From sequence record MZ291552.2: 64,000 bases of DNA. One strand, 5' to 3'. Source of the stretch: Escherichia phage vB_EcoM-UFV09. A program made the translations under genes and the position numbers. The notes under the pieces were generated by a model. It saw nothing but the letters and a program-made list of their open reading frames with translations, searched no databases and had not been told where the DNA came from. This document shows, one piece after another, positions 3,992 through 64,000 of this stretch. Positions within the stretch are counted from its first letter, which is position 1, and each line of letters starts with the position of its first letter.

Positions 3992-4080
3992 GTTATTGAG
4001 TTGGTGCCATTATATACATCGTTTTCTGATTGTGTTTTGTGTGCTTTCAAAATGAAGAAAGGGGCCGAAGCCCCTTACGA

Positions 4081-7751: not shown

Positions 7752-7776
7752 GGGCTTCGGCCCTTTGGAGAAAAAG

Positions 7777-9462: not shown

Positions 9463-10088
9463 TACAATAGCTCAAAGAATTCTTTGAGTCCTCTTATTAC
9501 ATGAGCGTGAGTTTTTCCACACTCTGGACATTTAATTGGAACAGCCAAATAAACAGTAGGCTTTAAAAGAATATCTTTTATAGCTACAATATCTGACTCT
9601 GTGATGATAGAATATAAATCTTCCAACTCTTTTTCATTCAAGTCTTCAACTGGAATGCTTTCCCCGTTAGCGTGAATCGTTTCTATACATGATACTATCA
9701 TGTGGGCTATATTTTTATCATCAAAAATTTTAGGGTAATGGAATTTAATTTTAATGTCACCCAGTGTATACCAGAGGTCTTCTGGTGCATCTATTTGTGT
9801 ATGTAATAGATTTATATGGGTTGGTATTTCAGTTCCGCAGGTGCACTTCCAGGAGTTTTCGTGATTAACTTCGCCAAGAGAATGTGCCCATAAATGAATC
9901 AACAATAGTTCTGATTCTTGACGATTTAAATCTTTTGCATTTGTGCAGTCTTTGATTAGCTTTTTAACAATTACTTCTACGGAACCATTATTTTTGGCAG
10001 TAATAAGTTCTAGATATTCTTTAAGCGTGAATGCGCGACAATTGATTATTTTAGAACCAACTCTCACATCAAATTTGTATTCATACAT
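9462..10088 (-). CDS. 26: Baseplate hub protein gp26
   Basis: 208-aa ORF at the T4 gene 26 position. Confidence 0.9.
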
Positions 10089-10109
10089 ATTTAGCTCCTT
10101 TATTTATCA

Positions 10110-10121
10110 TATTTATAAATA
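10110..10121. promoter_or_regulatory. Divergent overlapping late promoters within the palindrome TATTTATAAATA (gene 51 on plus, genes 26/25 on minus)
   Basis: TATAAATA readable on both strands between divergently transcribed late genes. Confidence 0.55.
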
Positions 10122-10138
10122 GAATAAAAGGAGCATCT

Positions 10139-10891
10139 ATGGCAAACATTATTCGTTGTAAATTACCAGATGGTGTTCATCGTTTTAAACCATTTACGGT
10201 AGAAGATTATCGAGATTTTTTGTTAGTTCGAAACGATATAGAACATCGGTCACCACAAGAACAAAAAGAAGTAATTGCTGATTTAATTGCTGATTATTTT
10301 GGAGACTATCCAAAGACTTGGCAACCATTTATATTTTTGCAGGTATTTGTAGGTTCAATAGGTAAAACTAAAGTACCAGTCACATTTGTATGTCCAAAAT
10401 GTAAAAAAGAAAAGACAGTTCCATTTGAAATATATCAAAAAGAATTAAAGGAACCTATTTTTGATGTAGCTAATGTTAAAATTAAATTAAATTTTCCTTC
10501 TGAGTTTTATGAAAATAAAGCAAAGATGATTACTGAAAATATTCATTCTGTTCAAGTAGATGAAATGTGGTATGATTGGAAGGAAATTAGTGAATCAAGT
10601 CAAATAGAACTTGTTGACGCCATCGAGATAGAAACATTAGAAAAAATTCTCGATGCAATGAATCCTATTAATTTAACATTGCACATGTCGTGTTGCGATA
10701 AGTACATTAAAAAATACACTGATATAGTAGATGTGTTTAAGCTATTAGTTAATCCAGATGAGATATTTACTTTTTATCAAATCAATCACACGCTTGTAAA
10801 AAGTAATTATAGCTTAAATTCAATAATGAAAATGATTCCTGCCGAGCGCGGATTCGTATTAAAACTGATTGAGAAGGATAAACATCAATGA
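10139..10891 (+). CDS. 51: Baseplate hub assembly protein gp51
   Basis: 250-aa ORF at the T4 gene 51 position. Confidence 0.9.
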
Positions 10892-12060
10892 GTATGTTAC
10901 AACGTCCTGGATATCCAAATCTCAGCGTTAAATTATTTGAGAGTTATGACGCTTGGAGTAATAATAGATTTGTTGAATTAGCTGCTACTATTACCACATT
11001 AACTATGCGTGACTCTCTTTATGGTCGAAATGAAGGAATGCTGCAGTTTTATGATTCTAAAAACATCCATACAAAAATGGATGGAAATGAAATAATTCAG
11101 ATTTCTGTAGCTAATGCAAACGATATTAATAATGTTAAAACACGAATTTATGGATGCAAGCATTTTTCCGTGTCAGTAGATTCAAAAGGCGATAACATCA
11201 TTGCTATTGAATTGGGAACTATTCATTCTATAGAAAATCTTAAATTTGGTAGACCATTTTTCCCTGATGCCGGTGAATCTATAAAGGAAATGCTTGGCGT
11301 AATTTATCAAGATCGTACATTATTAACTCCAGCGATAAATGCTATTAATGCTTATGTTCCTGATATTCCATGGACTAGCACATTTGAAAACTATTTGTCA
11401 TATGTAAGAGAAGTTGCTCTAGCGGTAGGAAGCGATAAGTTCGTGTTTGTATGGCAAGACATCATGGGAGTTAACATGATGGACTATGATATGATGATAA
11501 ATCAAGAACCATATCCAATGATTGTCGGTGAGCCAACTTTAATAGGTCAATTCGTCCAAGAATTGAAATATCCATTAGCATATGATTTTGTTTGGTTGAC
11601 TAAATCAAACCCGCATAAACGCGATCCAATGAAAAATGCTACTATCTATGCTCATTCATTTTTAGATTCTTCATTACCAATGATTACTACAGGAAAGGGT
11701 GAAAACTCTATTGTAGTGTCAAGGTCAGGTGCTTATTCTGAAATGACTTATAGAAATGGATATGAAGAAGCTATTCGTCTTCAGACTATGGCGCAGTATG
11801 ATGGTTACGCTAAATGTTCTACTGTCGGTAATTTTAACTTGACTCCTGGCGTTAAAATTATTTTTAATGATAGTAAAAACCAATTTAAAACAGAATTTTA
11901 CGTTGATGAAGTTATTCACGAATTATCAAATAATAATTCCGTAACTCATCTTTATATGTTCACTAATGCAACGAAACTGGAAACAATCGACCCAGTTAAG
12001 GTTAAAAATGAATTTAAAACTGATACTACCACTGAAGAAAGTAGTTCTTCCGATAAGTAA
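10888..12060 (+). CDS. 27: Baseplate hub protein gp27
   Basis: 390-aa ORF; T4 gp27 size and order. Confidence 0.95.
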
Positions 12061-12541
12061 TAAAGAAGTTTCTATTCCTAAGATGGGTCTTAAACATTAT
12101 AACATTTTAAAAGATGTTAAAGGTCCTGATGAAAATTTAAAGCTTCTTATTGATTCTATTTGTCCAAATTTATCACCGGCAGAAGTTGATTTCGTTTCTA
12201 TTCATTTGCTAGAATTTAATGGAAAGATTAAATCTCGTAAAGAAATAGATGGTTATACTTATGATATTAATGACGTTTATGTATGTCAAAGATTGGAATT
12301 TCAATACCAAGGAAATACATTTTATTTTAGACCTCCTGGAAAATTTGAACAATTTTTAACTGTAAGCGATATGTTATCCAAATGCTTGCTTAAGGTCAAT
12401 GATGAAGTTAAAGAAATTAATTTTCTTGAGATGCCAGCATTTGTTTTAAAATGGGCAAATGATATTTCTACAACTTTAGCAATTCCTGGCCCTAATGGTC
12501 CAATAACCGGAATTGGCAATATTATTGGATTATTTGAATGA
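12008..12541 (+). CDS. 28: Baseplate hub distal subunit gp28
   Basis: Internal ATG with AAGG Shine-Dalgarno gives 177 aa (the T4 gp28 size I recall); track ORF 11966..12541 starts further upstream. Confidence 0.8.
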
Positions 12542-14310
12542 AAAAGCCACAAGAAATGCAAACGATGCGTAGAAAAGTTATTTCAGATAATAAACCAACA
12601 CAGGAAGCGGCTAAATCCGCTTCTAATACTTTATCTGGTCTTAATGACATTTCTACAAAATTAGATGATGCTCAAGCTGCCTCTGAATTAATAGCTCAAA
12701 CTGTCGAAGAAAAATCGAATGAAATAGTTGGAGCAATTGATAACGTTGAAAGCGCAGTAAGTGATACTACTGCCGGTTCTGAGTTAATTGCTGAAACTGT
12801 TGAAATTGGCAACAATATTAATAAAGAAATCGGTGAATCGCTCGGAAGCAAATTAGATAAATTAACAAGTTTACTGGAACAAAAAATTCAGACAGCTGGA
12901 ATTCAGCAAACTGGAACGAGTTTAGCAGTAGTCGAAAATGCTATTCCTGTTAAAGTCGTCGAGGATGATACAGCTGAATCTGTGGGTCCTTTATTACCGG
13001 CTCCTGAAGCAGTTAATAATGATCCTGATGCTGATTTTTTCCCTACTCCTCAGCCAATTGAACAAAAACAAGAGTCTCCAGAAGAGAAGCAAAAAAGAGA
13101 CGCATTTAACTTAAAAATATCTAATGCATTAGATAAATTAACAAAGACAGTTGATTTCGGATTTAAGAAATCTATTTCAATTACTGATAAAATATCTAGT
13201 ATGCTATTTAAGTATACCGTCAGTGCTGCTATTGAAGCTGCTAAAATGGTTGCATTGATAATGGCTGTTGTTATTGGAATAGACCTGCTGATGGTTCATT
13301 TTAAATACTGGTCAGATAAATTTTCAAAAGCCTGGGATTTATTTGGTACTGATTTTACTAAATTCTCTAGCGAAACCGGAACATGGGGTCCTTTATTACA
13401 GAGCATCTTTGATTCTATTGATAAAATTAAACAACTTTGGGAAGCTGGAGATTGGGGCGGATTAACAGTAGCTATTGTTGAAGGGCTTGGAAGTGTTCTT
13501 TATAATTTAGGAGAGCTTATTCAATTAGGTATGGCTAAATTATCTGCAGCAATTCTTCGAGTCATTCCTGGCATGAAGGATACTGCTGATGAAGTAGAAG
13601 GAAGAGCATTAGAAAATTTCCAAAATTCTACTGGAGCATCTCTTAATAAAGAAGACCAAGAAAAAGTAGCAAATTATCAAGATAAACGAATGAATGACGA
13701 TCTTGGCCCAATAGCAAAAGGATTAGACAAAATTGCGAACTGGAAAACTCGTGCATCTAACTGGATTCGTGGTGTAGATAATAAAGAAGCATTGACTACT
13801 GACGAAGAACGTGCAGCAGAAGAAGAAAAATTAAAACAACTTTCACCGGAAGAAAGAAAAAATGCTTTAATGAAAGCTAATGAAGCTCGTGCTGCGATGA
13901 TTCGTTTTGAAAAATACGCTGATTCAGCTGATATGAGCAAAGACTCGACAGTTAAATCAATTGAAGCTGCTCATGAAGACCTTAAAAAACGAATGAATGA
14001 TCCGGATTTAAATAATTCACCAGCGGTTAAAAAAGAACTTGCTTCTAGATTTGCTAAAATTGATGCCACTTATCAAGAGCTCAAGAAAAATCAACCTGAA
14101 GCAAAACCTGAAACTTCTGCTAAATCACCAGAAGCAAAACAGGTCCAGGTGATTGAAAAGAACAAAGCACAACAAGCTCCTGTTCAACAAGCATCTCCTT
14201 CAATCAATAATACTAATAATGTTATTAAGAAAAATACTGTCGTTCATAACATGACACCTGTCACAAGCACAACTGCTCCTGGTGTATTTGGCGCGACGGG
14301 AGTTAATTAA
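12538..14310 (+). CDS. 29: Baseplate hub protein / tail length determinant gp29
   Basis: 590-aa ORF at the T4 gene 29 position. Confidence 0.95.
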   Translation: MKKPQEMQTMRRKVISDNKPTQEAAKSASNTLSGLNDISTKLDDAQAASELIAQTVEEKSNEIVGAIDNVESAVSDTTAGSELIAETVEIGNNINKEIGESLGSKLDKLTSLLEQKIQTAGIQQTGTSLAVVENAIPVKVVEDDTAESVGPLLPAPEAVNNDPDADFFPTPQPIEQKQESPEEKQKRDAFNLKISNALDKLTKTVDFGFKKSISITDKISSMLFKYTVSAAIEAAKMVALIMAVVIGIDLLMVHFKYWSDKFSKAWDLFGTDFTKFSSETGTWGPLLQSIFDSIDKIKQLWEAGDWGGLTVAIVEGLGSVLYNLGELIQLGMAKLSAAILRVIPGMKDTADEVEGRALENFQNSTGASLNKEDQEKVANYQDKRMNDDLGPIAKGLDKIANWKTRASNWIRGVDNKEALTTDEERAAEEEKLKQLSPEERKNALMKANEARAAMIRFEKYADSADMSKDSTVKSIEAAHEDLKKRMNDPDLNNSPAVKKELASRFAKIDATYQELKKNQPEAKPETSAKSPEAKQVQVIEKNKAQQAPVQQASPSINNTNNVIKKNTVVHNMTPVTSTTAPGVFGATGVN

Positions 14311-20943: not shown

Positions 20944-20968
20944 AAATTAAAGGCCCGAAGGCCTTTAA

Positions 20969-21154
20969 TTAATAGAGAGCTAAAAGAGTACGATATACTT
21001 CAAACTTTGGACCTTTTTCATATGGATCAAATCTTTCCGTGAATTCATCATATGCTAGTTTATCTGGGAATTCAAGAATAACCTGCGATACCGCAGTGGA
21101 AACATCTCCACCTTCTTTTTGAGCCACGACAATTGTTTCTAAGTAAGCTTTCAT
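20969..21154 (-). CDS. Hypothetical protein (61 aa) between gene 30 and alt
   Basis: ATG overlaps the gene 30 stop (ATGA coupling). Confidence 0.55.
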   Translation of the reverse strand: MKAYLETIVVAQKEGGDVSTAVSQVILEFPDKLAYDEFTERFDPYEKGPKFEVYRTLLALY

Positions 21155-24857: not shown

Positions 24858-24898
24858 AATATTTTCCTCAGTAAGGGGCCGAAGCCCCTCATTTATTT

Positions 24899-44852: not shown

Positions 44853-47800
44853 ATGGCCGAGATTAAAAGAAAGTTCAGAGCAGAAGACGGTCTGGACGCA
44901 GGTGGTGATAAAATAATCAACGTAGCTTTAGCTGATCGTACCGTAGGAACTGACGGTGTTAACGTTGATTACTTAATTCAAGAAAACACAGTTCAACAAT
45001 ATGATCCAACTCGTGGATATTTAAAAGATTTTGTAATCATTTATGATAACCGCTTTTGGGCTGCTATAAATGATATTCCAAAACCAGCAGGAGCTTTTAA
45101 TAGCGTACGATGGAGAGCGTTACGTACTGATGCAAACTGGACAACTGTTTCGTCAGGACCTTATCAATTAAAATCAGGCGAATCGATTTCAGTTAACACT
45201 GCAGCGGGTAATGACATTACATTTACTTTGCCATCTTCTCCAATTGATGGTGATACTATCGTTCTCCAAGATATTGGAGGAAAACCTGGAGTTAACCAGG
45301 TTTTAATTACAGCTCCGGTACAAAGCATTGTAAACTTTAGAGGTCAACAAGTACGCTCAGTACTAATGACTCATCCAAAATCACAGATAGTTTTAATTTT
45401 TAGTAATCGTCTGTGGCAAATGTATGTTGCTGATTATAGCAGAGAAGCGGCAGTTGTAACGCCAGCGAGTCTTTATCAAGCGCAATCAAACGATTTTATC
45501 GTGCGTAGATTTACTTCTGCTTCAGCAATTAATATTAAACTTCCTAGATTTGCTAATCATGGGGATATTATTAATTTTGTTGATTTAGATAAATTAAATC
45601 CGTTATATCATACTATCGTTACTACATACGATGAAACGACTTCAGTACAAGAAGTTGGAACTCATTCCATTGAAGGCCGTACATCTATTGATGGTTTCTT
45701 AATGTTTGATGATAATGAGAAATTGTGGAGATTATTTGACGGTGATAGTAAAGCGCGTTTACGCATTATAACAACTAATTCAAACATTCGTCCAAATGAA
45801 GAAGTCATGGTATTTGGCGCGAATAATGGAACAACTCAAACGATTGAACTTCAGCTTCCAACTGATATTTCTATCGGTGATACTGTTAAGATTTCCATGA
45901 ATTACATGAGAAAAGGACAAACAGTTAAAATCAAAGCTGCCGGTGAAGATAAAATTGCTTCTTCAGTTCAATTGTTGCAATTTCCAAAACGTTCAGAATA
46001 CCCACCTGAAACTAAATGGGTGACTGTTCAAGAATTAGTTTTTAACGGCGAAACTAATTATGTTCCAGTTTTACAGCTTGCTTATATCGAAGATTCCGAT
46101 GGAAAATATTGGGTTGTACAGCAAAACGTTCCAACAGTTGAAAGAGTAGACTCTTTAAATAATTCTACTAGAGCAAGATTAGGTGTAATTGCATTAGCTA
46201 CACAGGCTCAAGCTAATGCAGATTTAGAAAATTCTCCACAAAAAGAATTGGCAATTACTCCAGAAACGTTAGCTAATCGTACTGCTACAGAAACTCGTAG
46301 AGGTATTGCAAGAATAGCAACAACTGCGCAAGTAAACCAGGATACCACATTCTCTTTTGCAGATGACCTTATCATCACTCCTAAAAAGTTGAATGAAAGA
46401 ACTGCTACAGAAACTCGCAGAGGTGTCGCAGAAATTGCTACGCAGCAGGAAACTAATACAGGTACTGATGATACTACAATCATTACTCCTAAAAAGCTTC
46501 AAGCTCGCCAAGGTTCTGAATCATTATCTGGTATTGTAACTTTTGTATCTACTGCAGGAGCTACTCCAGCTTCTAGCCGCGAATTAAATGGTACGAATGT
46601 TTATAATAAAAACACTAATAACTTAGTTGTTTCACCTAAAGCCTTGGATCAGTATAAAGCTACTCCAACACAGCAAGGTGCGGTAATTTTAGCAGTTGAA
46701 AGTGAAGTAATTGCTGGACAAAGTCAAGAAGGATGGGCAAATGCGGTTGTAACGCCAGAAACGTTACATAAAAAGACATCAACTGATGGAAGAATTGGTT
46801 TAATTGAAATTGCTACTCAAAGTGAAGTTAATACAGGAACTGATTATACTCGTGCAGTCACTCCTAAAACTTTAAATGACCGTAGAGCAACTGAAAGTTT
46901 AAGTGGTATAGCTGAAATTGCTACACAAGTTGAATTCGACGCAGGCGTCGACGATACTCGTATCTCTACACCATTAAAAATTAAAACTAGATTTAATAGT
47001 ACTGATCGTACTTCAATTGCTACACAAGTTGAATTCGACGCAGGCGTCGACGATACTCGTATCTCTACACCATTAAAAATTAAAACTAGATTTAATAGTA
47101 CTGATCGTACTTCTGTTGTTGCTCTATCTGGATTAGTTGAATCAGGAACTCTCTGGGACCATTATACCCTTAATATTCTTGAAGCAAATGAGACACAACG
47201 TGGTACACTTCGTGTGGCTACACAAGTTGAAGCTGCTGCCGGAAAATTAGATAATGTTTTAATAACTCCTAAAAAGCTTTTAGGTACTAAATCTACCGAA
47301 TCGCAAGAAGGTGTTATTAAAGTTGCAACTCAGTCTGAAACTGTGGCTGGAACGTCAGTAAACACTGCTGTATCTCCAAAAAATTTAAAATGGATTGTAC
47401 AGAGTGAACCTACCTGGGCAGCTACTACTGCGATAAGAGGTTTTGTTAAAACTTCATCTGGTTCAATTACATTTGTCGGTAATGATACAGTCGGTTCTAC
47501 CCAAGATTTAGAACTGTATGAGAAAAATAGCTATGCAGTATCACCATATGAATTAAACCGTGTATTAGCAAATTATTTGCCATTAAAAGCAAAAGCTGCA
47601 GATAGTAATTTATTGGATGGTCTAGATTCATCTCAGTTCATTCGTAGGGACATTGCGCAGACGGTTAATGGTTCACTAACCTTAACCCAACAAACGAATC
47701 TGAGTGCCCCTCTTGTATCATCTAGTACTGCTACGTTTGGTGGATCAGTTTCAGCAAATAGTACATTAACTATTTCTAATACTGGAACAGCAACTCGATT

Positions 47801-48821
47801 GATTTTTGAGAAAGGACCTCAAACTGGAACAAACCCAGCCCAAACGATGACTGTTAGAGTGTGGGGAAATCAATTTAGTGGGGAATTAGATACAACACGT
47901 TCTACCGTATTTGAAGTTAGTGATGAAACATCTAGTCATTTTTATTCTCAGCGCAATAAAGCCGGAAATATAACATTTAATATCAACGGTACAGTAACAC
48001 CGATAAATGTTAATGCTTCAGGAACATTGAATGCAAATGGCGTAGCAACATTTGGTAATTCAGTCACTGCAACTGGTGAAATTATTTCTCGAAGCGCAAA
48101 TGCTTTCCGTGCTATTAACGGAAATTATGGTTTCATTGTTCGCAATGATGGATCAGTAACGAATTTTATGCTTACTGCATCGGGTGATCAGACTGGTGGA
48201 TTTAACGGATTACGTCCTTTGGCTATTAATAATGCATCTGGTCAAGTAACGATTGGTGAAAGCTTAATCATCGCCAAAGGTGCTACTATAAATTCTGGTG
48301 GTTTAACTGTTAATTCGAGAATTCGTTCTCAAGGTACTAAAACTTCTGATTTATATACCCGTGCGCCAACATCTGATACTGTAGGATTCTGGTCAATTGA
48401 TATTAATGATTCAGCTACTTATAACCAGTTCCCCGGTTATTTTAAAATGGTTGAAAAAACTAATGAAGTGACTGGACTTCCGTACTTAGAACGTGGCGAA
48501 GAAGTTAAATCTCCTGGTACACTGACACAGTTTGGTAACACACTTGATTCGCTTTACCAAGATTGGATTACTTATCCAACGACACCAGAAGCGCGTACCA
48601 CTCGTTGGACCCGCACATGGCAGAAAACCAAAAATTCTTGGTCAAGTTTTGTTCAGGTATTTGATGGAGGTAACCCTCCTCAACCGTCTGATATCGGTGC
48701 TTTACCATCTGATAATGCTACAATGGGGAATCTTACTATTCGTGATTTCTTACGAATTGGTAATGTTCGCATTATTCCTGACCCAGTGAATAAAACTGTT
48801 AAATTTGAATGGGTTGAATAA
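44853..48821 (+). CDS. 34: Long tail fibre proximal subunit gp34 (1322 aa) with an internal 33-aa tandem duplication
   Basis: Large repeat-rich ORF at the T4 gene 34 position; contains the 99-bp perfect tandem repeat at 46916..47113. Confidence 0.95.
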   Translation: MAEIKRKFRAEDGLDAGGDKIINVALADRTVGTDGVNVDYLIQENTVQQYDPTRGYLKDFVIIYDNRFWAAINDIPKPAGAFNSVRWRALRTDANWTTVSSGPYQLKSGESISVNTAAGNDITFTLPSSPIDGDTIVLQDIGGKPGVNQVLITAPVQSIVNFRGQQVRSVLMTHPKSQIVLIFSNRLWQMYVADYSREAAVVTPASLYQAQSNDFIVRRFTSASAINIKLPRFANHGDIINFVDLDKLNPLYHTIVTTYDETTSVQEVGTHSIEGRTSIDGFLMFDDNEKLWRLFDGDSKARLRIITTNSNIRPNEEVMVFGANNGTTQTIELQLPTDISIGDTVKISMNYMRKGQTVKIKAAGEDKIASSVQLLQFPKRSEYPPETKWVTVQELVFNGETNYVPVLQLAYIEDSDGKYWVVQQNVPTVERVDSLNNSTRARLGVIALATQAQANADLENSPQKELAITPETLANRTATETRRGIARIATTAQVNQDTTFSFADDLIITPKKLNERTATETRRGVAEIATQQETNTGTDDTTIITPKKLQARQGSESLSGIVTFVSTAGATPASSRELNGTNVYNKNTNNLVVSPKALDQYKATPTQQGAVILAVESEVIAGQSQEGWANAVVTPETLHKKTSTDGRIGLIEIATQSEVNTGTDYTRAVTPKTLNDRRATESLSGIAEIATQVEFDAGVDDTRISTPLKIKTRFNSTDRTSIATQVEFDAGVDDTRISTPLKIKTRFNSTDRTSVVALSGLVESGTLWDHYTLNILEANETQRGTLRVATQVEAAAGKLDNVLITPKKLLGTKSTESQEGVIKVATQSETVAGTSVNTAVSPKNLKWIVQSEPTWAATTAIRGFVKTSSGSITFVGNDTVGSTQDLELYEKNSYAVSPYELNRVLANYLPLKAKAADSNLLDGLDSSQFIRRDIAQTVNGSLTLTQQTNLSAPLVSSSTATFGGSVSANSTLTISNTGTATRLIFEKGPQTGTNPAQTMTVRVWGNQFSGELDTTRSTVFEVSDETSSHFYSQRNKAGNITFNINGTVTPINVNASGTLNANGVATFGNSVTATGEIISRSANAFRAINGNYGFIVRNDGSVTNFMLTASGDQTGGFNGLRPLAINNASGQVTIGESLIIAKGATINSGGLTVNSRIRSQGTKTSDLYTRAPTSDTVGFWSIDINDSATYNQFPGYFKMVEKTNEVTGLPYLERGEEVKSPGTLTQFGNTLDSLYQDWITYPTTPEARTTRWTRTWQKTKNSWSSFVQVFDGGNPPQPSDIGALPSDNATMGNLTIRDFLRIGNVRIIPDPVNKTVKFEWVE
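46916..47113 (+). repeat. Perfect 99-bp direct tandem duplication (2 copies), in frame, inside gene 34
   Basis: 46916..47014 is identical to 47015..47113; encodes IATQVEFDAGVDDTRISTPLKIKTRFNSTDRTS twice. Confidence 0.95.
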
Positions 48822-48829
48822 GAGGTATT

Positions 48830-49945
48830 ATGGAAAAATTTATGGCAGAGTTTGGACAAGGATATGTCCAAACGCCATTTTTATCGGAAAGCAATTCAGT
48901 AAGATATAAAATAAGCATAGCGGGTTCTTGCCCGCTTTCTACAGCAGGATCATACGTTAAATTTCAGGATAATCCTGTAGGAAGTCAAACATTTAGTGCA
49001 GGTCTTCATTTAAGAGTTTTTGACCCTTCCACGGGAGCATTGGTTGATAGTAAGTCATATGTTTTTTCTACTTCAAATGATACAACATCTGCTGCTTTTG
49101 TTAGTTTCATGAATTCTTTTTCAAGCAATAGACTTGTTGCCATATTAACTAGCGGAAAGGTTAATTTTCCTCCTGAAGTAGTATCTTGGTTAAGAACGGC
49201 AGGAACATCTGCTTTTCCATCTGATTCTTTATTGTCAAGATTTGATGTATCATATGCTGCCTTTTACACTTCTTCTAAAAGAGCTATCGCACTAGAGCAT
49301 GTTAAACTGAGTAACAGAAAAAGCACAGATGACTATCAAACTATATTAGATGTAGTATTTGACAGTTTAGAAGATGTTGGAGCGACAGGATTTCCTAAAA
49401 GAACATATGAAAGCGTTGAGCAATTTATGTCAGCTGTTGGTGGAACTAATAACGAAATTGCACGTCTACCTACAGCATCTGCAATAAGTAAACTTTCTGA
49501 CTATAATTTAATTCCTGGAGATGTTCTTTATCTTAAAGCACAACTATATGCTGATGCTGATTTACTTGCTCTTGGAACTACAAATATATCTATCCGTTTT
49601 TATAATGCGTCGAATGGATATATTTCCTCGACACAAGCTGAGTTTACCGGACAAGCTGGGTCTTGGGAATTAAAGGAAGATTATGTAGTTGTTCCTGAAA
49701 ATGCAGTTGGATTTACGATATATGCACAGAGAACTGCTCAAGCGGGACAAGGCGGTATGCGAAATTTAAGCTTTTCTGAAGTATCAAGAAACGGCGGTAT
49801 TTCAAAACCTGCTGAATTTGGCGTCAATGGTATTCGTGTTAATTATATCTGTGAATCTGCTTCACCTCCGGATATAATGGTACTTCCTACGCAAGCATCG
49901 TCTAAAACTGGTAAAGTGTTTGGACAGGAATTTAGAGAAGTTTAA
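48830..49945 (+). CDS. 35: Long tail fibre hinge protein gp35
   Basis: 371-aa ORF at the T4 gene 35 position. Confidence 0.9.
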   Translation: MEKFMAEFGQGYVQTPFLSESNSVRYKISIAGSCPLSTAGSYVKFQDNPVGSQTFSAGLHLRVFDPSTGALVDSKSYVFSTSNDTTSAAFVSFMNSFSSNRLVAILTSGKVNFPPEVVSWLRTAGTSAFPSDSLLSRFDVSYAAFYTSSKRAIALEHVKLSNRKSTDDYQTILDVVFDSLEDVGATGFPKRTYESVEQFMSAVGGTNNEIARLPTASAISKLSDYNLIPGDVLYLKAQLYADADLLALGTTNISIRFYNASNGYISSTQAEFTGQAGSWELKEDYVVVPENAVGFTIYAQRTAQAGQGGMRNLSFSEVSRNGGISKPAEFGVNGIRVNYICESASPPDIMVLPTQASSKTGKVFGQEFREV

Positions 49946-49950
49946 ATTGA

Positions 49951-49975
49951 GGGAGCCTTCGGGTTCCCTTTTTCT
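49951..49975 (+). terminator. Hairpin (UUCG tetraloop) plus T-tract downstream of gene 35
   Basis: gggagcc-ttcg-ggttccc followed by tttttc. Confidence 0.55.
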
Positions 49976-49976
49976 T

Positions 49977-49984
49977 TATAAATA
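49977..49984 (+). promoter_or_regulatory. Late promoter for genes 36-37-38
   Basis: Exact TATAAATA about 24 nt upstream of the gene 36 ATG. Confidence 0.6.
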
Positions 49985-50007: not shown

Positions 50008-50664
50008 ATGGCTGATTTAAAAGTAGGTTCAACAACCGGAGGCTCTGTCATTTGGCATCAAGGAAATTTTCCATTGAATCCAGCCGGTGACGATGTACTC
50101 TATAAATCATTTAAAATATATTCAGAATATAATAAACCACAAGCAACTGATAACGATTTCGTTTCTAAAGCTAATGGTGGTACTTATTTAAATAAAGTAA
50201 TTTTTAATAAAGGAATGACTGTTCCTGGTGCTGGGTCAGGTGACAACGGTATTTTTGCCGGTCCTGGTGATAATGCCACATATGATACTACAAATATGGA
50301 TATTGTTTCATGGTATGGTATCGGCTTTAAATCATCACAAGGAGCAGCAGGTAGAACTGTAGTAATTAACACACGAAACGGAGATATTAGCTCAAAGGGT
50401 GTAATTGAAGCATCACAAATACGCGCAACTTCGTTATCACCAGTAAATAATTATGACCTTACGAGAAAAGATTATGTTGATGGAGCAATAAATATTGTTA
50501 CAACAAATGCAAACTCTAGAGTATTACGCTCTGGAGACACTATGACAGGAAATTTAACTGCGCCAAACCTTTTTTCACAGAATCCTGCATCTCAACCCTC
50601 GCATGTTCCGCGATTTGACCAAATCGTAATTAAGGATTCTGTTCAAGATTTCGGCTATTATTAA
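50008..50664 (+). CDS. 36: Long tail fibre distal connector gp36
   Basis: 218-aa ORF at the T4 gene 36 position. Confidence 0.9.
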   Translation: MADLKVGSTTGGSVIWHQGNFPLNPAGDDVLYKSFKIYSEYNKPQATDNDFVSKANGGTYLNKVIFNKGMTVPGAGSGDNGIFAGPGDNATYDTTNMDIVSWYGIGFKSSQGAAGRTVVINTRNGDISSKGVIEASQIRATSLSPVNNYDLTRKDYVDGAINIVTTNANSRVLRSGDTMTGNLTAPNLFSQNPASQPSHVPRFDQIVIKDSVQDFGYY

Positions 50665-50672
50665 GAGGACTT

Positions 50673-53600
50673 ATGGCTACTTTAAAACAAATACAATTTA
50701 AAAGAAGCAAAACGGCAGGTCAACGTCCAGCTGCTTCAGTATTAGCCGAAGGTGAATTGGCTATAAACTTAAAAGACCGTGTACTTTTTACTAAAGATGA
50801 CCAGGGAAATATTATTGATTTAGGTTTTGCTAAAGGCGGTAGTATTGACGGGAATGTTATTCATAAAGGCAATTATAACCAAACTGGAGATTATACTTTA
50901 AACGGTACATTCACCCAGACTGGTAATTTTAATTTAACCGGTATTGCTCGAGTAACTCGTGATATTATTGCTGCTGGGCAGATTATGACTGAAGGCGGAG
51001 AACTTATTACAAAAAGTTCAGGTACATCACATGTTCGTTTTCATGATTCAGCTGACCGTGAACGCGGTATTATTTTTTCTCCTGCTAATGATGGATTAAC
51101 TACACAAGTAATTAACATCAGAGTTCAAGATTACAAAGCCGGTTCAGAAAATACTTTTTCTTTTAGCGGTAGTGGTCTTTTCACATCGCCGGAAGTTTCT
51201 GCATGGAAATCTATGTCAACCCCCCAGATTTTGACTAACAAAGTCATTACTAATAATAAATCTACGAGTGATTATGACATTTATTCGATGGCAGACAATG
51301 TTCCATTGTCTGAAAGCACTACTGCTATTAATCATCTTCGTGTTATGCGTAATGCAGTTGGTTCTGGTATTTTTCATGAAGTTAAAGATAATGATGGAAT
51401 AACATGGTATAGTGGAGATGGATTAGATGCTTATCTGTGGTCATTTACCTGGAGCGGCGGAATTAAATCAAGTCACTCAATTTCCATCGGTTTAACACCC
51501 GGACCTAAGGATTACTCAATATTAGGACCGTCTAGTATCGCTTTAGGAGATAATGATACTGGATTTAAATGGCATCAAGACGGATATTATTTCAGTGTTA
51601 ACAATGGCACAAAAACGTTTTTATTTAGTCCCAGCGAAACAACTAGCCTAAGAAAATTTGTAGCTGGATATTCTACTAACGGAACCGATTTAACTACTCC
51701 TCCAACTGAAAATTATGCTCTTGCTACTGTAGTGACATACCACGATAATAACGCGTTTGAAGATGGTCAGACTCTTTTAGGATATTATCAAGGCGGTAAT
51801 TATCATCACTATTTCCGCGGTAAAGGTACTACAAACATTAATACTCACGGTGGTTTGTTAGTTACTCCTGGTAATATTGACGTTATTGGTGGTTCTGTTA
51901 ATATCGATGGTAGAAATAATGCTTCTACACTGATGTTTAGAGGTAACACAACTGGTAGTAGTTCAGTTGATAATATGACAATTTCCGTTTGGGGCAATAC
52001 GTTTACTAATCCTAGTGTAGGTAATCGTAAAAACGTCATGGAAATTTCTGATGCAACTAGTTGGATGAGCTATATTCAAAGACTTACAACAGGTGAAGTA
52101 GAAATGAACGTTAACGGTTCATTTGAATCATCTGGTGTTACTGCTGGAAATAGAGGAGTTCACACAACAGGCGAAATTTCATCTGGAGCAGTGAATGCGC
52201 TTCGTATTTGGAACGCAGATTATGGAGCCATTTTTAGACGTTCAGAAGGTAGTCTTCATATTATTCCGACTGCTTATGGTGAAGGCAAAAATGGTGATAT
52301 CGGTCCACTTCGTCCATTTAGTATTGCTTTGGATACTGGTAAGGTTGTTATTCCAGATTTAGAATCAAGTTATAACACGTTTGCTGCAAATGGCTACATT
52401 AAATTTGCTGGTCATGGCGCGGGTGCAGGTGGTTATGATATTCAGTATTCACAAGCTGCTCCTATTTTCCAAGAAATCGATGATGCTGCTGTAAGCAAAT
52501 ATTATCCTATTGTTAAACAGAAGTTTTTAAATGGTAAAGCTGTCTGGTCTTTGGGTACTGAAATTAATTCTGGTACATTTGTTTTACATCATTTGAAAGA
52601 AGATGGTTCACAAGGCCATACATCAAGATTTAATGCTGATGGTACAGTCAATTTCCCCGATAACGTTCAAGTCGGTGGTGGTGAAGCTACTATTGCTCGT
52701 AATGGTAATATTTTCTCAGATATTTGGAAATCGTTTACTTCTGCGGGAGAAACCACAAATATTCGCGATGCAATAGCTACTCGTGTTGCCAAAGAAGGCG
52801 ATACGATGACTGGCAAATTAATCGTTAAAAGAGGCTCTGACGCTATTAACATTGCTGCCGATGAAAATGATTCTTGCTATTTACTTGGAACATCGGGTGG
52901 AGCGAATTCATGGTACATTGGTAAAGGAGGAGCAGATGACACTGCTTCATTTTATAATTTCAAAACTACCGCAGGAATTACTCTTAATAGTGTTGGTGAT
53001 ATTGATTTTAACGTTAAAAATCAAGCTACTGCAGCTTCATTAAATTTTTATCGTTTATATTTAAATGGAAGACAGTGGACAGCTACACAAGGACATGGAT
53101 ATAATAATCAATGGCAAACAGAAGCCCCATTCTTCGTTGACTTTGGCGAATCTGTTCCGAAAGATAGTTATATGCCTATAATTAAAGGAAGAAGCCAAAT
53201 CATTAACGAAGGATATGCCACAAAGGCAGATTTTGGTATTATTCGATTAGGCGGAAATGCTACTTGGGGAAATGCAGTAATTCGTGTTGGTTCTGCAGAA
53301 AGCGGAGATAGCAGTCATCCTAATGCAATATTTGTGTTTCAGGCTAATGGCGATTTTAAAGCTCCGGCTGGCCTTCGTGCTGGTGTTAACTTGGGCGTCG
53401 GCACAATTCCAGTATGGGGCGGAGCATCTATCGCCATCGGTGATGATGATACCGGTTTAGTTCATGGCGGCGATGGTCGAATTAATATGTATGCTAACGC
53501 GCAGCATATTGCATCATGGGGCACGATGTATCAATCTCATCCAGGCCTTTGGGATTCATATGGAGCTTTTTGGACAGAAGTTGGCAAAGCAATTATTTCT

Positions 53601-53999
53601 CATGGCCATTTAGTTCAGGCGAATGACAGTTATTCCACATATGTACGCGATGTTTATGTCCGCTCTGATATTCGTGTCAAAAAGGACCTAGTTAAATTTG
53701 AAAATGCTTCTGAGAAGCTTTCAAAAATTAACGGTTACACTTATATGCAGAAGCGAGGTCTAGATGAAGAAGGTAATCAAAAATGGGAACCTAACGCAGG
53801 TTTAATTGCTCAAGAAGTTCAAGCTATTTTACCTGAATTAGTTGAAGGCGATCAGGATGGTGAAGCACTACTTCGTTTGAACTACAACGGTGTAATCGGT
53901 TTAAATACAGCTGCAATCAATGAGCATACTGCAGAAATTGCAGAACTTAAGTCAGAGATTGAAGAGCTTAAAAAATTAGTCAAATCATTGTTAAAATAA
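50673..53999 (+). CDS. 37: Long tail fibre distal subunit gp37 with C-terminal intramolecular-chaperone-like domain (T2-type)
   Basis: 1108-aa ORF; C-terminal about 110 aa (SDIRVKKDL...coiled-coil tail) resembles the autoproteolytic chaperone domains of phage fibres and tailspikes. Confidence 0.9.
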
Positions 54000-54003
54000 A
54001 ATG

Positions 54004-54019
54004 AGGGGCTTCGGCCCCT
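54004..54019 (+). other. Stable RNA hairpin (UUCG tetraloop) between genes 37 and 38
   Basis: aggggc-ttcg-gcccct immediately followed by GGAGG Shine-Dalgarno and the gene 38 ATG. Confidence 0.5.
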
Positions 54020-54030
54020 TGGAGGTTTAT

Positions 54031-54825
54031 ATGGCAGTTGAAGGACCGTGGGTAGGATGGTCTGCGAGGGTACAAACTGGAGACCCTTGGATGGGTGGTG
54101 CCGCGCAGAGATTGAGAATGGGAATTCCGTTTTGGATGAGTAATATGATAGGTCGATCTGTTGAAGTAATTCACACACTTGGAGCGGACCATAACTTCAA
54201 TGGTCAATGGTTCCGAGATAGATGTTTTGAGGCAGGTAGTGCACCTATAGTGTTTAATATTACCGGAAATTTGGTATCATATTCTAGAGACGTTCCTTTA
54301 TTCTTTATGTATGGAGATACACCTAATGAATATGTTCAGTTGAATATTGGTGGCGGCGTCCATATGTGGGGTAGAGGTGGACAAGGTGGATGGACTCATT
54401 CCGGCGGAGATGGTAATGGTCAACAAGGTGGTCATTGTATTCAAAATGACATCGGTGGACGATTAAGAATTAATAACGGTGGAGTAATTTGCGGTGGAGG
54501 TGGAGGTGGAGGTGGTATCGCTTATCGTCCTCGCTCTGGCGCAAAATGGCAAGATATTGGTGGTGGCGGTGGAAGACCATTTGGCCCAGGAGGTGGCGGC
54601 GGTTACTCGGGTGGCGCAGCTTCATACGACGGTCCAGGAGGTGGTTATCAATACGGAAATGCTCACTCCGGCCAGGGTGGCGATGCCGGAGGAAATGGAC
54701 AAAATGCCTGGTCGGATGGCGGTAAAGTTCTAAAAGTTGGAGCTGGTGGCGCTGCCGGATATGCTGTTATAGGATCCGCTCCAACATGGCAAAATGTTGG
54801 AGTAATATATGGTCCAAGGGTATAA
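54031..54825 (+). CDS. 38: gp38 receptor-binding adhesin (T2-type, glycine-rich motifs)
   Basis: 264-aa product from ATG with GGAGG Shine-Dalgarno; conserved N-terminal region then poly-Gly blocks separated by variable segments; track ORF starts at 54001 inside the hairpin. Confidence 0.85.
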
Positions 54826-54855
54826 TTTGAATAAATATCCTTAAAAGGAGGGTCT

Positions 54856-55512
54856 ATGGCAGCACCTAGAATATCATTTTCGCCCTCTGATATTCTATTT
54901 GGTGTTCTAGATCGCTTGTTCAAAGATAACGCTACCGGGAAAGTTCTTGCTTCCCGGGTAGCTGTCGTAATTCTTTTATTTATGATGGCGATTGTTTGGT
55001 ATAGGGGAGATAGTTTCTTTGAGTACTATAAGCAATCAAAGTATGAAACATACAGTGAAATTATTGAAAAGGAAAGAAATGCACGCTTTGAATCTGTCGC
55101 CCTGGAACAACTCCAGATAGTTCACATATCATCTGAGGCAGACTTTAGTGCGGTGTATTCTTTCCGCCCTAAAAACTTAAACTATTTTGTCGATATTATA
55201 GCATATGAAGGAAAATTACCTTCAACAATAAGTGAAAAATCACTTGGAGGATATCCTGTTGATAAAACTATGGATGAATATGCAGTTCATTTAAATGGAC
55301 GTCATTATTATTCCAACTCAAAATTTGCTTTTTTACCAACTAAAAAGCCTACTCCCGAAATAAACTACATGTACAGTTGTCCATATTTTAATTTGGATAA
55401 TATCTATGCTGGAACGATAACCATGTACTGGTATAGAAATGATCATATAAGTAATGACCGCCTTGAATCAATATGCGCCCAGGCGGCCAGAATATTAGGA
55501 AGGGCTAAATAA
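54856..55512 (+). CDS. t: Holin T
   Basis: 218-aa ORF with one N-terminal transmembrane segment and large periplasmic domain. Confidence 0.93.
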   Translation: MAAPRISFSPSDILFGVLDRLFKDNATGKVLASRVAVVILLFMMAIVWYRGDSFFEYYKQSKYETYSEIIEKERNARFESVALEQLQIVHISSEADFSAVYSFRPKNLNYFVDIIAYEGKLPSTISEKSLGGYPVDKTMDEYAVHLNGRHYYSNSKFAFLPTKKPTPEINYMYSCPYFNLDNIYAGTITMYWYRNDHISNDRLESICAQAARILGRAK

Positions 55513-55785
55513 TTATTTGTTCGTATACATCTCTAGATATCGATATACACCCTCAAAACCCTCGTTGAATTCGTCGATGAGGGTTTTCTTATCTTCTTGA
55601 GTTAATTCAGAAACAATTTTACGGAATGAATTCTGATTTAATTTTCTACCTTCATGTGTTACTCCAATCTCATTCAGAAATGCAATAAAATTAGCACGAT
55701 TTTCAACAATATCTTCTCTGGAAAATTTAATCAAAATAGACGCAACAGTAATAATTTCACGAACTGTATCAATATTTTTATTCAT
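55513..55785 (-). CDS. asiA: AsiA anti-sigma-70 factor
   Basis: 90-aa ORF recognised as T4 AsiA. Confidence 0.95.
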   Translation of the reverse strand: MNKNIDTVREIITVASILIKFSREDIVENRANFIAFLNEIGVTHEGRKLNQNSFRKIVSELTQEDKKTLIDEFNEGFEGVYRYLEMYTNK

Positions 55786-62752: not shown

Positions 62753-62838
62753 TAAACTTTCCTTTTACGTCGGAATCACTGATATTCATACAATAAATCA
62801 TAGTTTCCCTTAAAACAAAAGGGCCGAAGCCCCTTATT

Positions 62839-63033: not shown

Positions 63034-63061
63034 AATTTTCCTTAGTTAAGGGCCGAAGCCC

Positions 63062-64000
63062 TTATTTAAATTGTTCAGTAACGTCTTCAACTACTTCGTA
63101 TTGGCAGGTACGCATTTTAGCATCGTTGTAATCAATCGGAATTGATACTACATCACGTGGATGTACTTTAACTTTTACAACTCGGCTGGTTGAACTGCCA
63201 AAGTGACGAATATAAGATTTAGAACACACATGCAGACCACGAGAACAAGTTTGTGTATCATCGTCATTCACACGAGTACGTGGCATTTTAACTACTTTGC
63301 CAGGACTGTTATCAAAGGTGTTTGAGTGGCAGTCAAAGTAATTGCTGCGAACTACTTTCCAAGCATAGAAGTAGCCATCTTCTGTAATTTCAATATCGTT
63401 TGCTACCAAGAAATCAAAGAGTCGAGATACCGCTTTTTGGCTTGGGTTTTCCAGCAGATTTTCCAAGAACGGAAAATAAAATTCAAAGTTTTCGCCTTTT
63501 TCCATCGAGTCAAGAATACGATCAACCAAACCAGACCGCAATTCGATATTTTGATAGAACAAGCTTCCACCTTCAATTCGAACATCGCCGGAAATATATT
63601 TTTCAACAGCGCGACGAACATTAATTTTTTGTGCCGCTTCTTCTAACTTATCTGCTACGAGCAGATTAAGAATTTCCTGGAAGTTTGAATGAGTATTAGG
63701 TGTTGCATTATAAGTTACACCATCAACAGTAATCGAAATGAATTTTTTAGATGCATTCCAAATAATGTCAGATTTAGCAACTGGAGCAATAACTGCATCG
63801 CTATTAACTTTAACTGTAATATCACCACTAATAGTAACTTTAGGGCGTTTAGCTTCTTCAGCATTTTTCAAAACACGACGGATTGTGTCAACCGATACAT
63901 CCTTCCAATAAGCTAATTCCTGCTGAGTGTAATTACCACTTGAATACAGTTTAACAATTTCAGCTTGTTCGTTTTTGGTCAGGCATTTAATATTGTACAT
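63062..64000 (-). CDS. rIIB: rIIB protein
   Basis: 312-aa ORF recognised as T4 rIIB; start codon is the last three bases of the window. Confidence 0.93.
   Translation of the reverse strand: MYNIKCLTKNEQAEIVKLYSSGNYTQQELAYWKDVSVDTIRRVLKNAEEAKRPKVTISGDITVKVNSDAVIAPVAKSDIIWNASKKFISITVDGVTYNATPNTHSNFQEILNLLVADKLEEAAQKINVRRAVEKYISGDVRIEGGSLFYQNIELRSGLVDRILDSMEKGENFEFYFPFLENLLENPSQKAVSRLFDFLVANDIEITEDGYFYAWKVVRSNYFDCHSNTFDNSPGKVVKMPRTRVNDDDTQTCSRGLHVCSKSYIRHFGSSTSRVVKVKVHPRDVVSIPIDYNDAKMRTCQYEVVEDVTEQFK

Follow-up and report, generated by a model that had tools for sequence, protein, structure and literature searches.

The window, a stretch of 64,000 nucleotides from Escherichia phage vB_EcoM-UFV09 (MZ291552.2), belongs to a Tequatrovirus, and according to its open reading frames and Pfam matches it carries a tail-fibre locus in the order 34-35-36-37-38-t (Table 1). 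This order is fixed by the gene t found directly past gene 38; gene 38 itself is placed right behind gene 37 and ahead of t, the position expected for a Gp38 adhesin. The sequence here is 100% identical to that of Escherichia phages vB_EcoM-UFV05, UFV06, UFV10 and UFV11, and about 97% identical to wV7 and KIT03. The GenBank records of these four UFV phages name gp37 'hypothetical protein' and gp38 'tail protein and peptidase'; in the correct annotation the peptidase module sits in gp37, and the adhesin is gp38. A literature search found no experimental work on the window phage or other UFV phages. Three minus-strand open reading frames (53882-54178, 53980-54207 and 54663-54923) and one in an alternative plus-strand frame of the GGN-rich stretch (54494-54733) had no PHROG match and were treated as by-products of composition.

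Table 1. Features of the gene 37-38 region and its neighbourhood (positions in the window).
Feature	Position	Strand	Remarks
T4-type late promoter, exact TATAAATA	49977..49984	+	5' of gene 36; nearest exact one upstream of genes 37-38
Gene 37, distal long-tail-fibre subunit, 1108-aa precursor	50673..53999	+	ORF; Pfam Gp34_trimer, gp37_trimer, Peptidase_S74
gp37 aa 993-997, DVYVR, last strand of mature fibre	53649..53663	+	Predicted gp38 docking surface
gp37 aa 998-1108, Peptidase_S74 intramolecular chaperone module	53664..53996	+	PF13884
Putative Ser/Lys dyad, S998 and K1003	53664-53666 and 53679-53681	+	
C(UUCG)G hairpin between genes 37 and 38	54002..54021 (core 54005-54018)	+	2 nt past gene 37 stop
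Shine-Dalgarno GGAGG of gene 38	54021-54025	+	5 nt ahead of ATG; its 5' G doubles as the final base of the extended stem of the hairpin
Gene 38, tail-fibre adhesin, 264 aa plus stop	54031..54825	+	Pfam, PHROG and PDB matches
gp38 aa 1-45, N-terminal attachment domain	54031..54165	+	Contains W7, W20, W35
gp38 aa 46-113, conserved beta-helix core	54166..54369	+	Low column entropy; AF2 strands with pLDDT >90
gp38 aa 114-238, glycine-rich predicted polyglycine-II sandwich and variable loops	54370..54744	+	Fold as 9V85, 6F45_D
Variable segment 1, aa 121-132	54391..54426	+	1.88 bits; PP01 loop-A by alignment
Variable segment 2, aa 163-176, loop-B	54517..54558	+	2.48 bits; holds R166, R168
Variable segment 3, aa 189-202, loop-C	54595..54636	+	1.72 bits
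Variable segment 4, aa 206-213, loop-D	54646..54669	+	2.51 bits; Q207 differs from wV7
Variable segment 5, aa 224-238, loop-E	54700..54744	+	2.30 bits; position 228 is S/H/Y in close relatives
gp38 aa 239-264, C-terminal strands closing the beta-helix	54745..54822	+	Conserved
Gene t, holin	54856..55512	+	Pfam Phage_holin_T, E=5.9e-117; downstream neighbour of gene 38
Bits are column entropies.

The initial annotation had proposed a chaperone-like domain at the C-terminus of gp37, at about 53664..53996. This proposal is borne out by a match to Peptidase_S74 (PF13884; E=1.2e-12, 48.4 bits, cut-off 22) covering aa 998-1057, near the extreme C-terminus of the 1108-residue protein, and codon 998 starts exactly at 53664. 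The cleavage-site serine, on whose presence that annotation had made its reading depend, is retained as S998 and is accompanied by K1003 at +5. The putative cleavage motif DVYVR^S998DIRVK1003 is conserved: the pattern VY(V/I)RSDxRxK is invariant across the eight T-even phages compared, including V, Y and R of DVYVR. The module also matches S16 gp37 (6F45_A, E=3e-45), where VRS^DIRVKKD is aligned with VSS^DRRIKKD and DVYVR with DLNVS, as well as 35 PHROG tail-fibre families at their very C-termini. A further match (E=0.03) was found to the self-cleaving domain of MYRF (7DC3), in which the lysine at +5 is aligned (motif ADLRAK) and alanine occupies the place of S998 in the chain. The concept of a Ser/Lys dyad is taken from endoNF S911/K916 and MYRF, and we assume that it extends to S998/K1003. 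Endosialidase-type S74 domains (K1F endoNF, T5 pb1, phi29 gp12 and MYRF) are members of the same Pfam family; they likewise terminate a trimeric fibre and have a Lys five residues past the one at the cleavage site. They differ in the carrier protein, and also in that cleavage of the window gp37, as proposed here, would prepare a surface on which a second protein, the adhesin, can dock.

Our prediction of gp37 self-cleavage between R997 and S998 is in line with observations on related phages. In S16 gp37 the cleavage site is known and 113 aa are removed (PMC7917993), and processing of gp37 that precedes its capping by gp38 was reported in T2 and T6 (PMC3157838). It could be argued that the S74-like module is an uncleaved relic that stays on the fibre, the case for cleavage here being built from sequence alone. 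We consider this very improbable: the serine, the lysine at +5 and the surrounding motif do not vary even between divergent phages whose gp37 tip and module are otherwise only 17-32% identical, cleavage is documented in S16, T2 and T6, and the docking of gp38 requires an exposed gp37 end.

The start of gene 38 is assigned to position 54031, because residues 1-40 of the protein align with positions 1-40 of Gp38_N, GGAGG stands 5 nt upstream, and the same start is annotated in UFV10. The in-frame ATG at 54001, which the ORF finder lists as well, was rejected; it lacks a Shine-Dalgarno sequence and lies beside the hairpin, and the homologues start at 54031. The full length of two Pfam profiles is matched by gp38, GP38 (PF05268; E=1.7e-68, 231.2 bits) and Gp38_N (PF21721; E=1.4e-19, 70.2 bits), each with a cut-off of 25 bits, and the protein falls into phrog_2056 (E=4e-109). 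Among solved structures the best match is the receptor-binding domain of PP01 (9V85, E=1e-72), and the S16 adhesin 6F45_D is matched over the full length (E=9e-50). The same two entries were the only PDB fold matches of an AF2 model with pLDDT 86.7 (E=1e-26 to 3e-23), with TM-scores of 0.72-0.78 normalised by the query and 0.83-0.85 normalised by the target. The model thus predicts a beta-helix joined to a polyglycine-II sandwich. Tryptophans W7, W20 and W35 are at least 90% conserved among 63 homologues; in S16 the three tryptophans of the attachment domain plug into gp37 pockets (PMC6851490). The C-terminal strands (aa 239-264) are 100% identical in wV7, KIT03, AV119, FL08 and RB32.

These results uphold the earlier view of gp38 as an adhesin, with a conserved N-terminal region followed by poly-glycine blocks, and not as a chaperone of the T4 type. 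In the latter case gp38 would be an assembly factor outside the virion, and gp37 itself would bind the receptor, as might be suggested by the label 'distal long tail fiber assembly catalyst' of some database homologues, a legacy name copied from T4. However, the full-length alignment with T4 gp38 that the initial annotation had singled out as contrary evidence is absent (best BLASTP E=0.85), gp37 is devoid of the T4-type C-terminal receptor domain, and gp38 matches structurally solved adhesins from end to end. At the sequence level the chaperone reading is refuted, and we regard it as scarcely tenable. The likeness to T4 consists of the locus position, the C(UUCG)G hairpin past gene 37, and the N-terminal two-thirds of gp37, where 640 aa are 35% identical; beyond about aa 640 of the window protein the alignment breaks off. 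No relationship is seen in the C-terminal third: T4 gp37 ends without an S74 module and gives no significant match to the C-terminus of the window gp37.

Glycine makes up 40% of aa 111-245 of gp38, compared with 14% of aa 1-110, and forms runs of eight (155-162), five (177-181) and five (187-191) residues. In an alignment of 63 gp38 sequences, the column entropy is 0.4-1.05 bits in the glycine blocks and 1.7-2.5 bits in the intervening segments, which correspond to loops A-E as defined in PMC12892980. Identity to the window gp38 across 62 homologues is 82.9% in the blocks and 39.3% in the five variable segments. The suggestion that these segments set receptor specificity and are suitable for engineering is supported by published work, in which variable segments of this kind determine specificity and have been exchanged or engineered (PMC3157838, PMC12892980, PMC12032242).

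By its sequence, the window adhesin is a member of the wV7/KIT03/AV119/RB32 allele group. Identity of gp38 is 98.1% with wV7, 97.7% with KIT03, 95.8% with AV119 and 93.6% with FL08, and 97% with the receptor domain of RB32; all these proteins are classed as OmpA-type gp38, 'type 1' of Lutz et al. 2025. In wV7, KIT03, AV119 and FL08 the gp37 chaperone module is also 97-99% identical to that of the window. In contrast, the RB32 module is only 31.5% identical, and this phage combines the 97% identical receptor domain with a T6-like N-terminal domain of gp38 (56% identity) and a T6-like gp37 tip (19% identity), which shows that the attachment module of gp38 co-varies with the gp37 tip. The classical adhesins of T2, T6, M1 and Ac3 (Riede, Henning, Tetart, Krisch) belong to the same family and occupy the same gene position. 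The N-terminal domain of Ac3 gp38 is 100% identical to that of the window, and the glycine/loop region of T6, M1 and Ac3 is 45-46% identical. T2 gp38 shows 35-44% identity in the N-terminal, beta-helix and glycine-rich modules and 77% in the last 26 residues. The link to Ox2 comes only from a note in the RB32 record, 'similar to Ox2, T6, M1'.

The receptor of S16 is Salmonella OmpC. The S16 gp37-gp38 complex (6F45; Dunne et al. 2018) shares the architecture of the window proteins from end to end: an S74 chaperone bearing the cleavage motif in gp37, and in gp38 a three-Trp attachment domain, a beta-helix and a polyglycine-II sandwich. Its gp38 is only 43% identical, and the loops and the host are different. 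PP01 gp38 (9V85; Terasaki et al. 2026) has an almost identical beta-helix core (TM 0.72-0.85, 64% identity), whereas its loops A to E vary in both sequence and length; PP01 binds OmpC of O157.

Taking together the domain content, the conserved residues, the fold match, the block and loop pattern and the conservation of the hairpin, all of them shown in this analysis, we are highly confident that the locus encodes the distal tip of a T-even long tail fibre capped by an adhesin, as in T2, T6 and S16. In the proposed mechanism, gp37 would be made as a precursor of 1108 residues, the last 111 of which (998-1108) would form an intramolecular chaperone, bring about trimerisation and then excise themselves between R997 and S998 by means of the Ser998/Lys1003 dyad. 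Cleavage would expose the DVYVR end of the gp37 trimer; the docking role of the last strand of the mature fibre has been described for S16 and the fPS phages (PMC7917993). One gp38 monomer would attach to this end by the helical domain at its N-terminus, making use of W7, W20 and W35, giving a probable gp37:gp38 stoichiometry of 3:1. The conserved glycine blocks of gp38 would then serve as a scaffold, and the five variable loops at the far end would contact an outer-membrane protein. The late promoter at 49977 probably drives joint transcription of genes 36-37-38. Overall, this system is already-known biology, an ordinary T-even receptor-binding tip, and no new biology is implied.

The receptor recognised by the window gp38 allele is most likely OmpA, possibly with an additional dependence on the LPS core. 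This prediction follows from the closest relatives with tested receptors, AV119 (96%), FL08 (94%) and RB32 (receptor domain, 97%), all of which need OmpA. Deletion of ompA abolishes the infectivity of AV119 and FL08 (PMC12032242), while RB32 depends on both OmpA and LPS, a specificity that its variable region confers on RB5 (PMC3157838). In AV119 gp38 residues R165-A170 are predicted OmpA contacts (PMC12032242), and the predicted contact residues R166, R182, D218 and R263 are kept in the window protein. Of the receptors considered in the initial annotation (ompC, ompF, tsx, fadL and ompA), homology points to OmpA; Tsx and FadL are the receptors of T6 and T2, respectively (PMC3157838).

The same architecture would also accommodate a receptor other than OmpA. 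Candidates are OmpC, which PP01 and AR1 use on O157:H7, a different porin, and LPS. The top solved-structure match is indeed the OmpC-binding gp38 of PP01, several near-identical alleles come from O157:H7 phages (wV7, KIT03 and HY03 were isolated on O157:H7), and loop-B bears a private H168R change. Nevertheless, the likeness to PP01 is confined to the scaffold, with different loops and 64% identity overall, the three closest receptor-tested alleles (AV119, FL08 and RB32) are all OmpA-dependent, and the predicted OmpA-contact residues are conserved. We therefore view a non-OmpA receptor as unlikely, and OmpA remains the preferred candidate. A receptor assignment for KIT03 was not found in the literature search, which returned only passing mentions of this phage.

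Compared with wV7, the window gp38 has five substitutions, Q26L, R168H, Q207N, G221A and S228H (window residue first). R168, which adjoins the predicted OmpA-contact residues in loop-B, occurs only in the UFV lineage; at this position the remaining 62 sequences of the alignment have another residue (mostly H, S or N) or a gap. In Ox2 host-range mutants, single changes in the gp38 loops can shift specificity. It is conceivable, though quite improbable, that R168 together with Q207, G221 and S228 has shifted the receptor or loop specificity of the UFV-lineage gp38 relative to wV7, RB32 and AV119. The shifted gp38 could recognise different variants of OmpA or employ a second receptor and, if true, a handful of loop substitutions on a fixed scaffold would retarget the phage. 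The codon differences from wV7, 23 synonymous and five non-synonymous, do not support positive selection in gp38; they are clustered in codons 154-228, and the cluster looks more like a recombination patch.

A stable UUCG hairpin between genes 37 and 38, right before the gp38 Shine-Dalgarno sequence, had also been noted, and its presence is confirmed. The core is GGGGC-UUCG-GCCCC, and the hairpin lies 2-5 nt 3' of the gene 37 stop. The hairpin alone has an MFE of -13.3 kcal/mol, and its 61-nt context folds with z=-2.2 relative to shuffles. In the window, 12 C(UUCG)G hairpins with a stem of at least 5 were observed, against 0.27 expected from dinucleotide shuffles, and 12 of 13 C(UUCG)G hairpins are located no more than 60 nt 3' of a same-strand ORF stop. 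The site is kept, with some pairs changed, in wV7, KIT03, AV119, FL08, RB32 (where the loop is UUU), RB6, T2 and T4. Since T4 has the hairpin at the same place, and twelve others occur elsewhere in the window, it is not specific to loci organised as in T2. No Rfam family was assigned to the hairpin when positions 53500-55000 were scanned at E<=1. Intercistronic C(UUCG)G hairpins were originally discovered in mRNA of T4 (PMC4371310), and the element at 54005-54018 fits this class in the UUCG loop, the C:G closure, the G+C-rich stem and the location just 3' of a coding region. It is presumably one of the generic intercistronic stability elements of T-even mRNAs.

Another possible role, which we judge rather unlikely, is that of a transcription terminator instead of an element of mRNA stability or folding. 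It might act either as a partial plus-strand stop past gene 37 that lowers gp38 relative to gp37, as would suit the 3:1 ratio of these proteins, or as a stop for leftward early transcripts of the minus strand. Read on the minus strand, the stem precedes CATTTTATTT and was classed as terminator-like, and a similar hairpin after gene 35 (49949-49970) has a plus-strand T-run. At the same time, the U-tract is absent on the plus strand here, so that the hairpin is probably not an efficient terminator, and the minus-strand T-run is not kept in T4, which carries the same hairpin next to a chaperone-type gp38. Moreover, no exact late promoter TATAAATA occurs between genes 37 and 38, only one-mismatch sites, and gp38 therefore needs read-through. 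A stability element thus remains the preferred interpretation.

The practical use of these results is limited to annotation and phage engineering, where the five mapped loops together with the probable OmpA receptor give a usable basis for predicting host range or grafting loops. Elsewhere in the locus, gene 34 of the window contains a perfect tandem duplication of 99 bp that stays in frame, either a genuine variant or an assembly artefact, by which it differs from UFV10.

The gp37-gp38 tip of vB_EcoM-UFV09 is a textbook example of a system whose structure and genetics have been characterised, and GenBank already contains its exact sequence; the observation made in the initial annotation is confirmed and its interpretation supported. 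ORF calling around the tip in the window reveals the canonical T-even long-tail-fibre locus (see table), where Pfam backs the identities of gp36 and the holin. In Megablast, the region 53000-55000 shows 100% identity with Escherichia phages vB_EcoM-UFV10/11/06, 99.9% with UFV05, and ~97% with wV7, KIT03, O157 typing phage 7 and Sa45lw (all Tequatrovirus). The added value of this analysis lies in a corrected annotation of the UFV records, a residue-level module map, and a receptor prediction.

Long-tail-fibre genes and examples of C(UUCG)G hairpins in the window; (-), minus strand
Feature	Position	Product length
gene 34	44853-48821	1322 aa
gene 35	48830-49945	371 aa
gene 36	50008-50664	218 aa
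gene 37	50673-53999	1108 aa
gene 38	54031-54825	264 aa
gene t (holin)	54856-55512	218 aa
C(UUCG)G hairpin	1114-1133	
C(UUCG)G hairpin	4059-4076(-)	
C(UUCG)G hairpin	7750-7765	
C(UUCG)G hairpin	20945-20970(-)	
C(UUCG)G hairpin	24872-24891(-)	
C(UUCG)G hairpin	49949-49970	
C(UUCG)G hairpin	62818-62835(-)	
C(UUCG)G hairpin	63047-63064(-)	

The whole of gp38 is spanned by Pfam GP38 (E=1.7e-68) and Gp38_N (E=1.4e-19), and it matches phrog_2056 ('tail fiber protein; host specificity'; E=4e-109), the PP01 gp38 receptor-binding domain (PDB 9V85, E=1e-72), and full-length S16 gp38 (6F45_D, E=9e-50). No similarity to T4 gp38 was detectable in this protein (best E=0.85), and T4 gp37 could be aligned only to the first ~640 residues of gp37. 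Therefore, both objections to the T2-type adhesin proposed earlier in place of a T4 chaperone-type gp38, namely a full-length T4-like gp38 and a gp37 lacking its cleavage-site serine, fall away. Translation starts at ATG 54031, which has GGAGG 5 nt upstream, aligns Gp38_N positions 1-40 with residues 1-40, and is also the start in the UFV10 record; these three features led us to drop the in-frame ATG 54001 called by the ORF finder. The AlphaFold2 model (63 homologues) has a mean pLDDT of 86.7, with low values in the N-terminal 16 residues, as expected because this domain folds against gp37. With this model Foldseek returned from the PDB only 9V85 and 6F45_D (E=1e-26 to 3e-23; TM-scores 0.72-0.78 query-normalised and 0.83-0.85 target-normalised, 0.45 target-normalised for the GFP-fusion chain 9v85_A) and no further folds, all remaining matches having E>4. 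One database protein (P0089, 303 aa, contig labelled E. coli) carries Peptidase_S74, Gp38_N and GP38 in a single chain, which probably stems from read-through of the gp37 end into gp38 or from wrong ORF calling on a partial contig.

In gp38, residues 111-245 are 40% glycine, compared with 14% for residues 1-110. In the 63-sequence alignment, conserved blocks (residues 114-120, 133-162, 177-188, 203-205 and 214-223; mean column entropy 0.4-1.05 bits) alternate with variable segments (121-132, 163-176, 189-202, 206-213 and 224-238; 1.7-2.5 bits), and mean identity of the 62 homologues to our gp38 is 82.9% in the blocks versus 39.3% in the segments, which bears out the predicted division of the glycine blocks by variable segments. 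The five segments are the counterparts of loops A to E of PP01 gp38 and of the five distal loops of S16 gp38 (PMC6851490). Also conserved are W7, W20 and W35, whose S16 equivalents plug pockets of gp37 (PMC6851490).

RB32 gene 38 (record L008, 4501-5301) and Ac3 gp38 (P0044) are chimeric adhesins with the junction near residue 45. RB32 gp38 is 56% identical to ours in residues 1-45 and 97-100% from residue 46 on, combining a T6/RB6-type N-terminal domain with a wV7-type receptor domain, and its gp37 tip is of RB6/T6 type (19% identity). Ac3 has the reverse pattern: its N-terminal domain is of the window type (100%), whereas its glycine/loop region is unrelated (45%). These domain-wise identities show module exchange: the N-terminal module travels with the gp37 tip on which it must dock, and the receptor domain independently, in line with Tetart and Trojet's model of recombination at glycine motifs (PMC3157838).

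OmpA is required by all of the closest gp38 alleles whose receptors have been tested. AV119 and FL08 (95.8% and 93.6% identity) fail on an MG1655 ompA deletion (PMC12032242); RB32 requires OmpA and LPS core genes, and its variable region, moved to RB5, carries its receptor specificity along (PMC3157838). The OmpA contacts predicted for AV119/FL08 by modelling, R165, R181, D217 and R262, correspond to R166, R182, D218 and R263 in our protein. We thus consider OmpA the fairly probable primary receptor on K-12-like hosts. Two caveats apply to this assignment: the contacts are modelled ones, and our allele has R168 at a position where the other 62 aligned sequences have a different residue (mostly H, S or N) or a gap. 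Gene 38 differs from its wV7 counterpart by 23 synonymous and 5 non-synonymous codon changes, concentrated in codons 154-228, a pattern more suggestive of a recombination patch under purifying selection than of an adaptive burst.

The chaperone-like C-terminus of gp37 begins exactly where the initial annotation had placed its start: Peptidase_S74 ('chaperone of endosialidase') matches residues 998-1057 (E=1.2e-12, 48.4 bits; Pfam cut-off 22 bits), and residue 998 is encoded at 53664. Over its last 199 residues, gp37 matches the fragment of S16 gp37 co-crystallised with gp38 (6F45_A, E=3e-45), with S16 LNVSS-DRRIKKD aligned to a 12-residue stretch. A weaker match over these residues is the MYRF self-cleaving domain (7DC3, E=0.03); here, too, the lysine five residues past the cleavage position is aligned. 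In an alignment with wV7, KIT03, AV119, FL08, RB32, RB6 and T2, residues V, Y, R, S, D, R and K of VY(V/I)RSDxRxK are invariant, the cleavage-site serine included, even though in RB32, RB6 and T2 the tip round the motif is only 17-26% identical to ours and the module only 30-32%. S16 gp37 is reported to be cut between the two serines of DLNVS^SDRRIKK, losing 113 residues (PMC7917993), and T2 and T6 gp37 are processed ahead of gp38 capping (PMC3157838). Based on the alignment with S16, a cut is predicted at R997^S998, which would remove 111 residues. The extreme C-terminal ends of 35 different PHROG tail-fibre families match this 111-aa module, which fits a portable folding module.

The stable UUCG hairpin expected between genes 37 and 38 is UGAGGGGC-UUCG-GCCCCUUG at 54002-54021 (MFE -13.3 kcal/mol, five-pair core -9.6 kcal/mol); it begins 2 nt past the gene 37 stop codon and ends on the first G of the gene 38 Shine-Dalgarno. 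A hairpin occupies this site in 8/8 other aligned phages, with some pairs changed and other loops in RB32 and RB6; being present in T2 and T4 alike, it is independent of the kind of gp38 downstream. Across the window there are 13 C(UUCG)G hairpins whose stems have at least 4 pairs, 12 of them within 60 nt past a same-strand ORF stop; with stems of at least 5 pairs there are 12 versus 0.27 expected, a strong over-representation. The class was first described in T4 mRNA (PMC4371310), and no Rfam family matches the post-gene-37 hairpin. Its role is most likely 3' stability or folding nucleation. A partial terminator is a live alternative, although no U-tract follows on the plus strand. Seen from the minus strand (54004-54019), the hairpin precedes CATTTTATTT and was classed as terminator-like; in that orientation it could end early leftward transcripts running antisense to t and gene 38, but the T-run is not retained in T4.

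Between genes 37 and 38 there is no exact late promoter; the closest one upstream is TATAAATA at 49977, and gene 38 therefore needs read-through. This promoter follows by 7 nt the hairpin after gene 35, which has a T-run. At 54830-54837, 19 nt before the start codon (ATG) of the holin gene, AATAAATA has one mismatch to the late-promoter consensus and is followed by the Shine-Dalgarno AAGGAGG. A candidate terminator for the late 36-37-38-t transcript is a 14-pair stem with a T-rich tail (55555-55587, plus strand, within the minus-strand gene asiA), 43 nt past the stop codon of the holin gene.

In the UFV10 record OP555981, gp37 (9674-13000) is named 'hypothetical protein' and gp38 (13032-13826) 'tail protein and peptidase'. 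The S74 peptidase module belongs to gp37, and gp38 is the adhesin. Several other records keep the T4-derived name 'distal long tail fiber assembly catalyst' for gp38. UFV10 equals the window base for base across 23 kb except for a perfect (100%) 99-bp in-frame tandem duplication in gene 34 (46916-47113; IATQVEFDAGVDDTRISTPLKIKTRFNSTDRTS twice), which adds 33 aa (gp34 of 1322 aa versus 1289 without it). The best 15 of 511 matching phage records have a single copy (532 nt across this stretch); the duplication could be a real recent variant adding one shaft repeat or an assembly/editing artefact.
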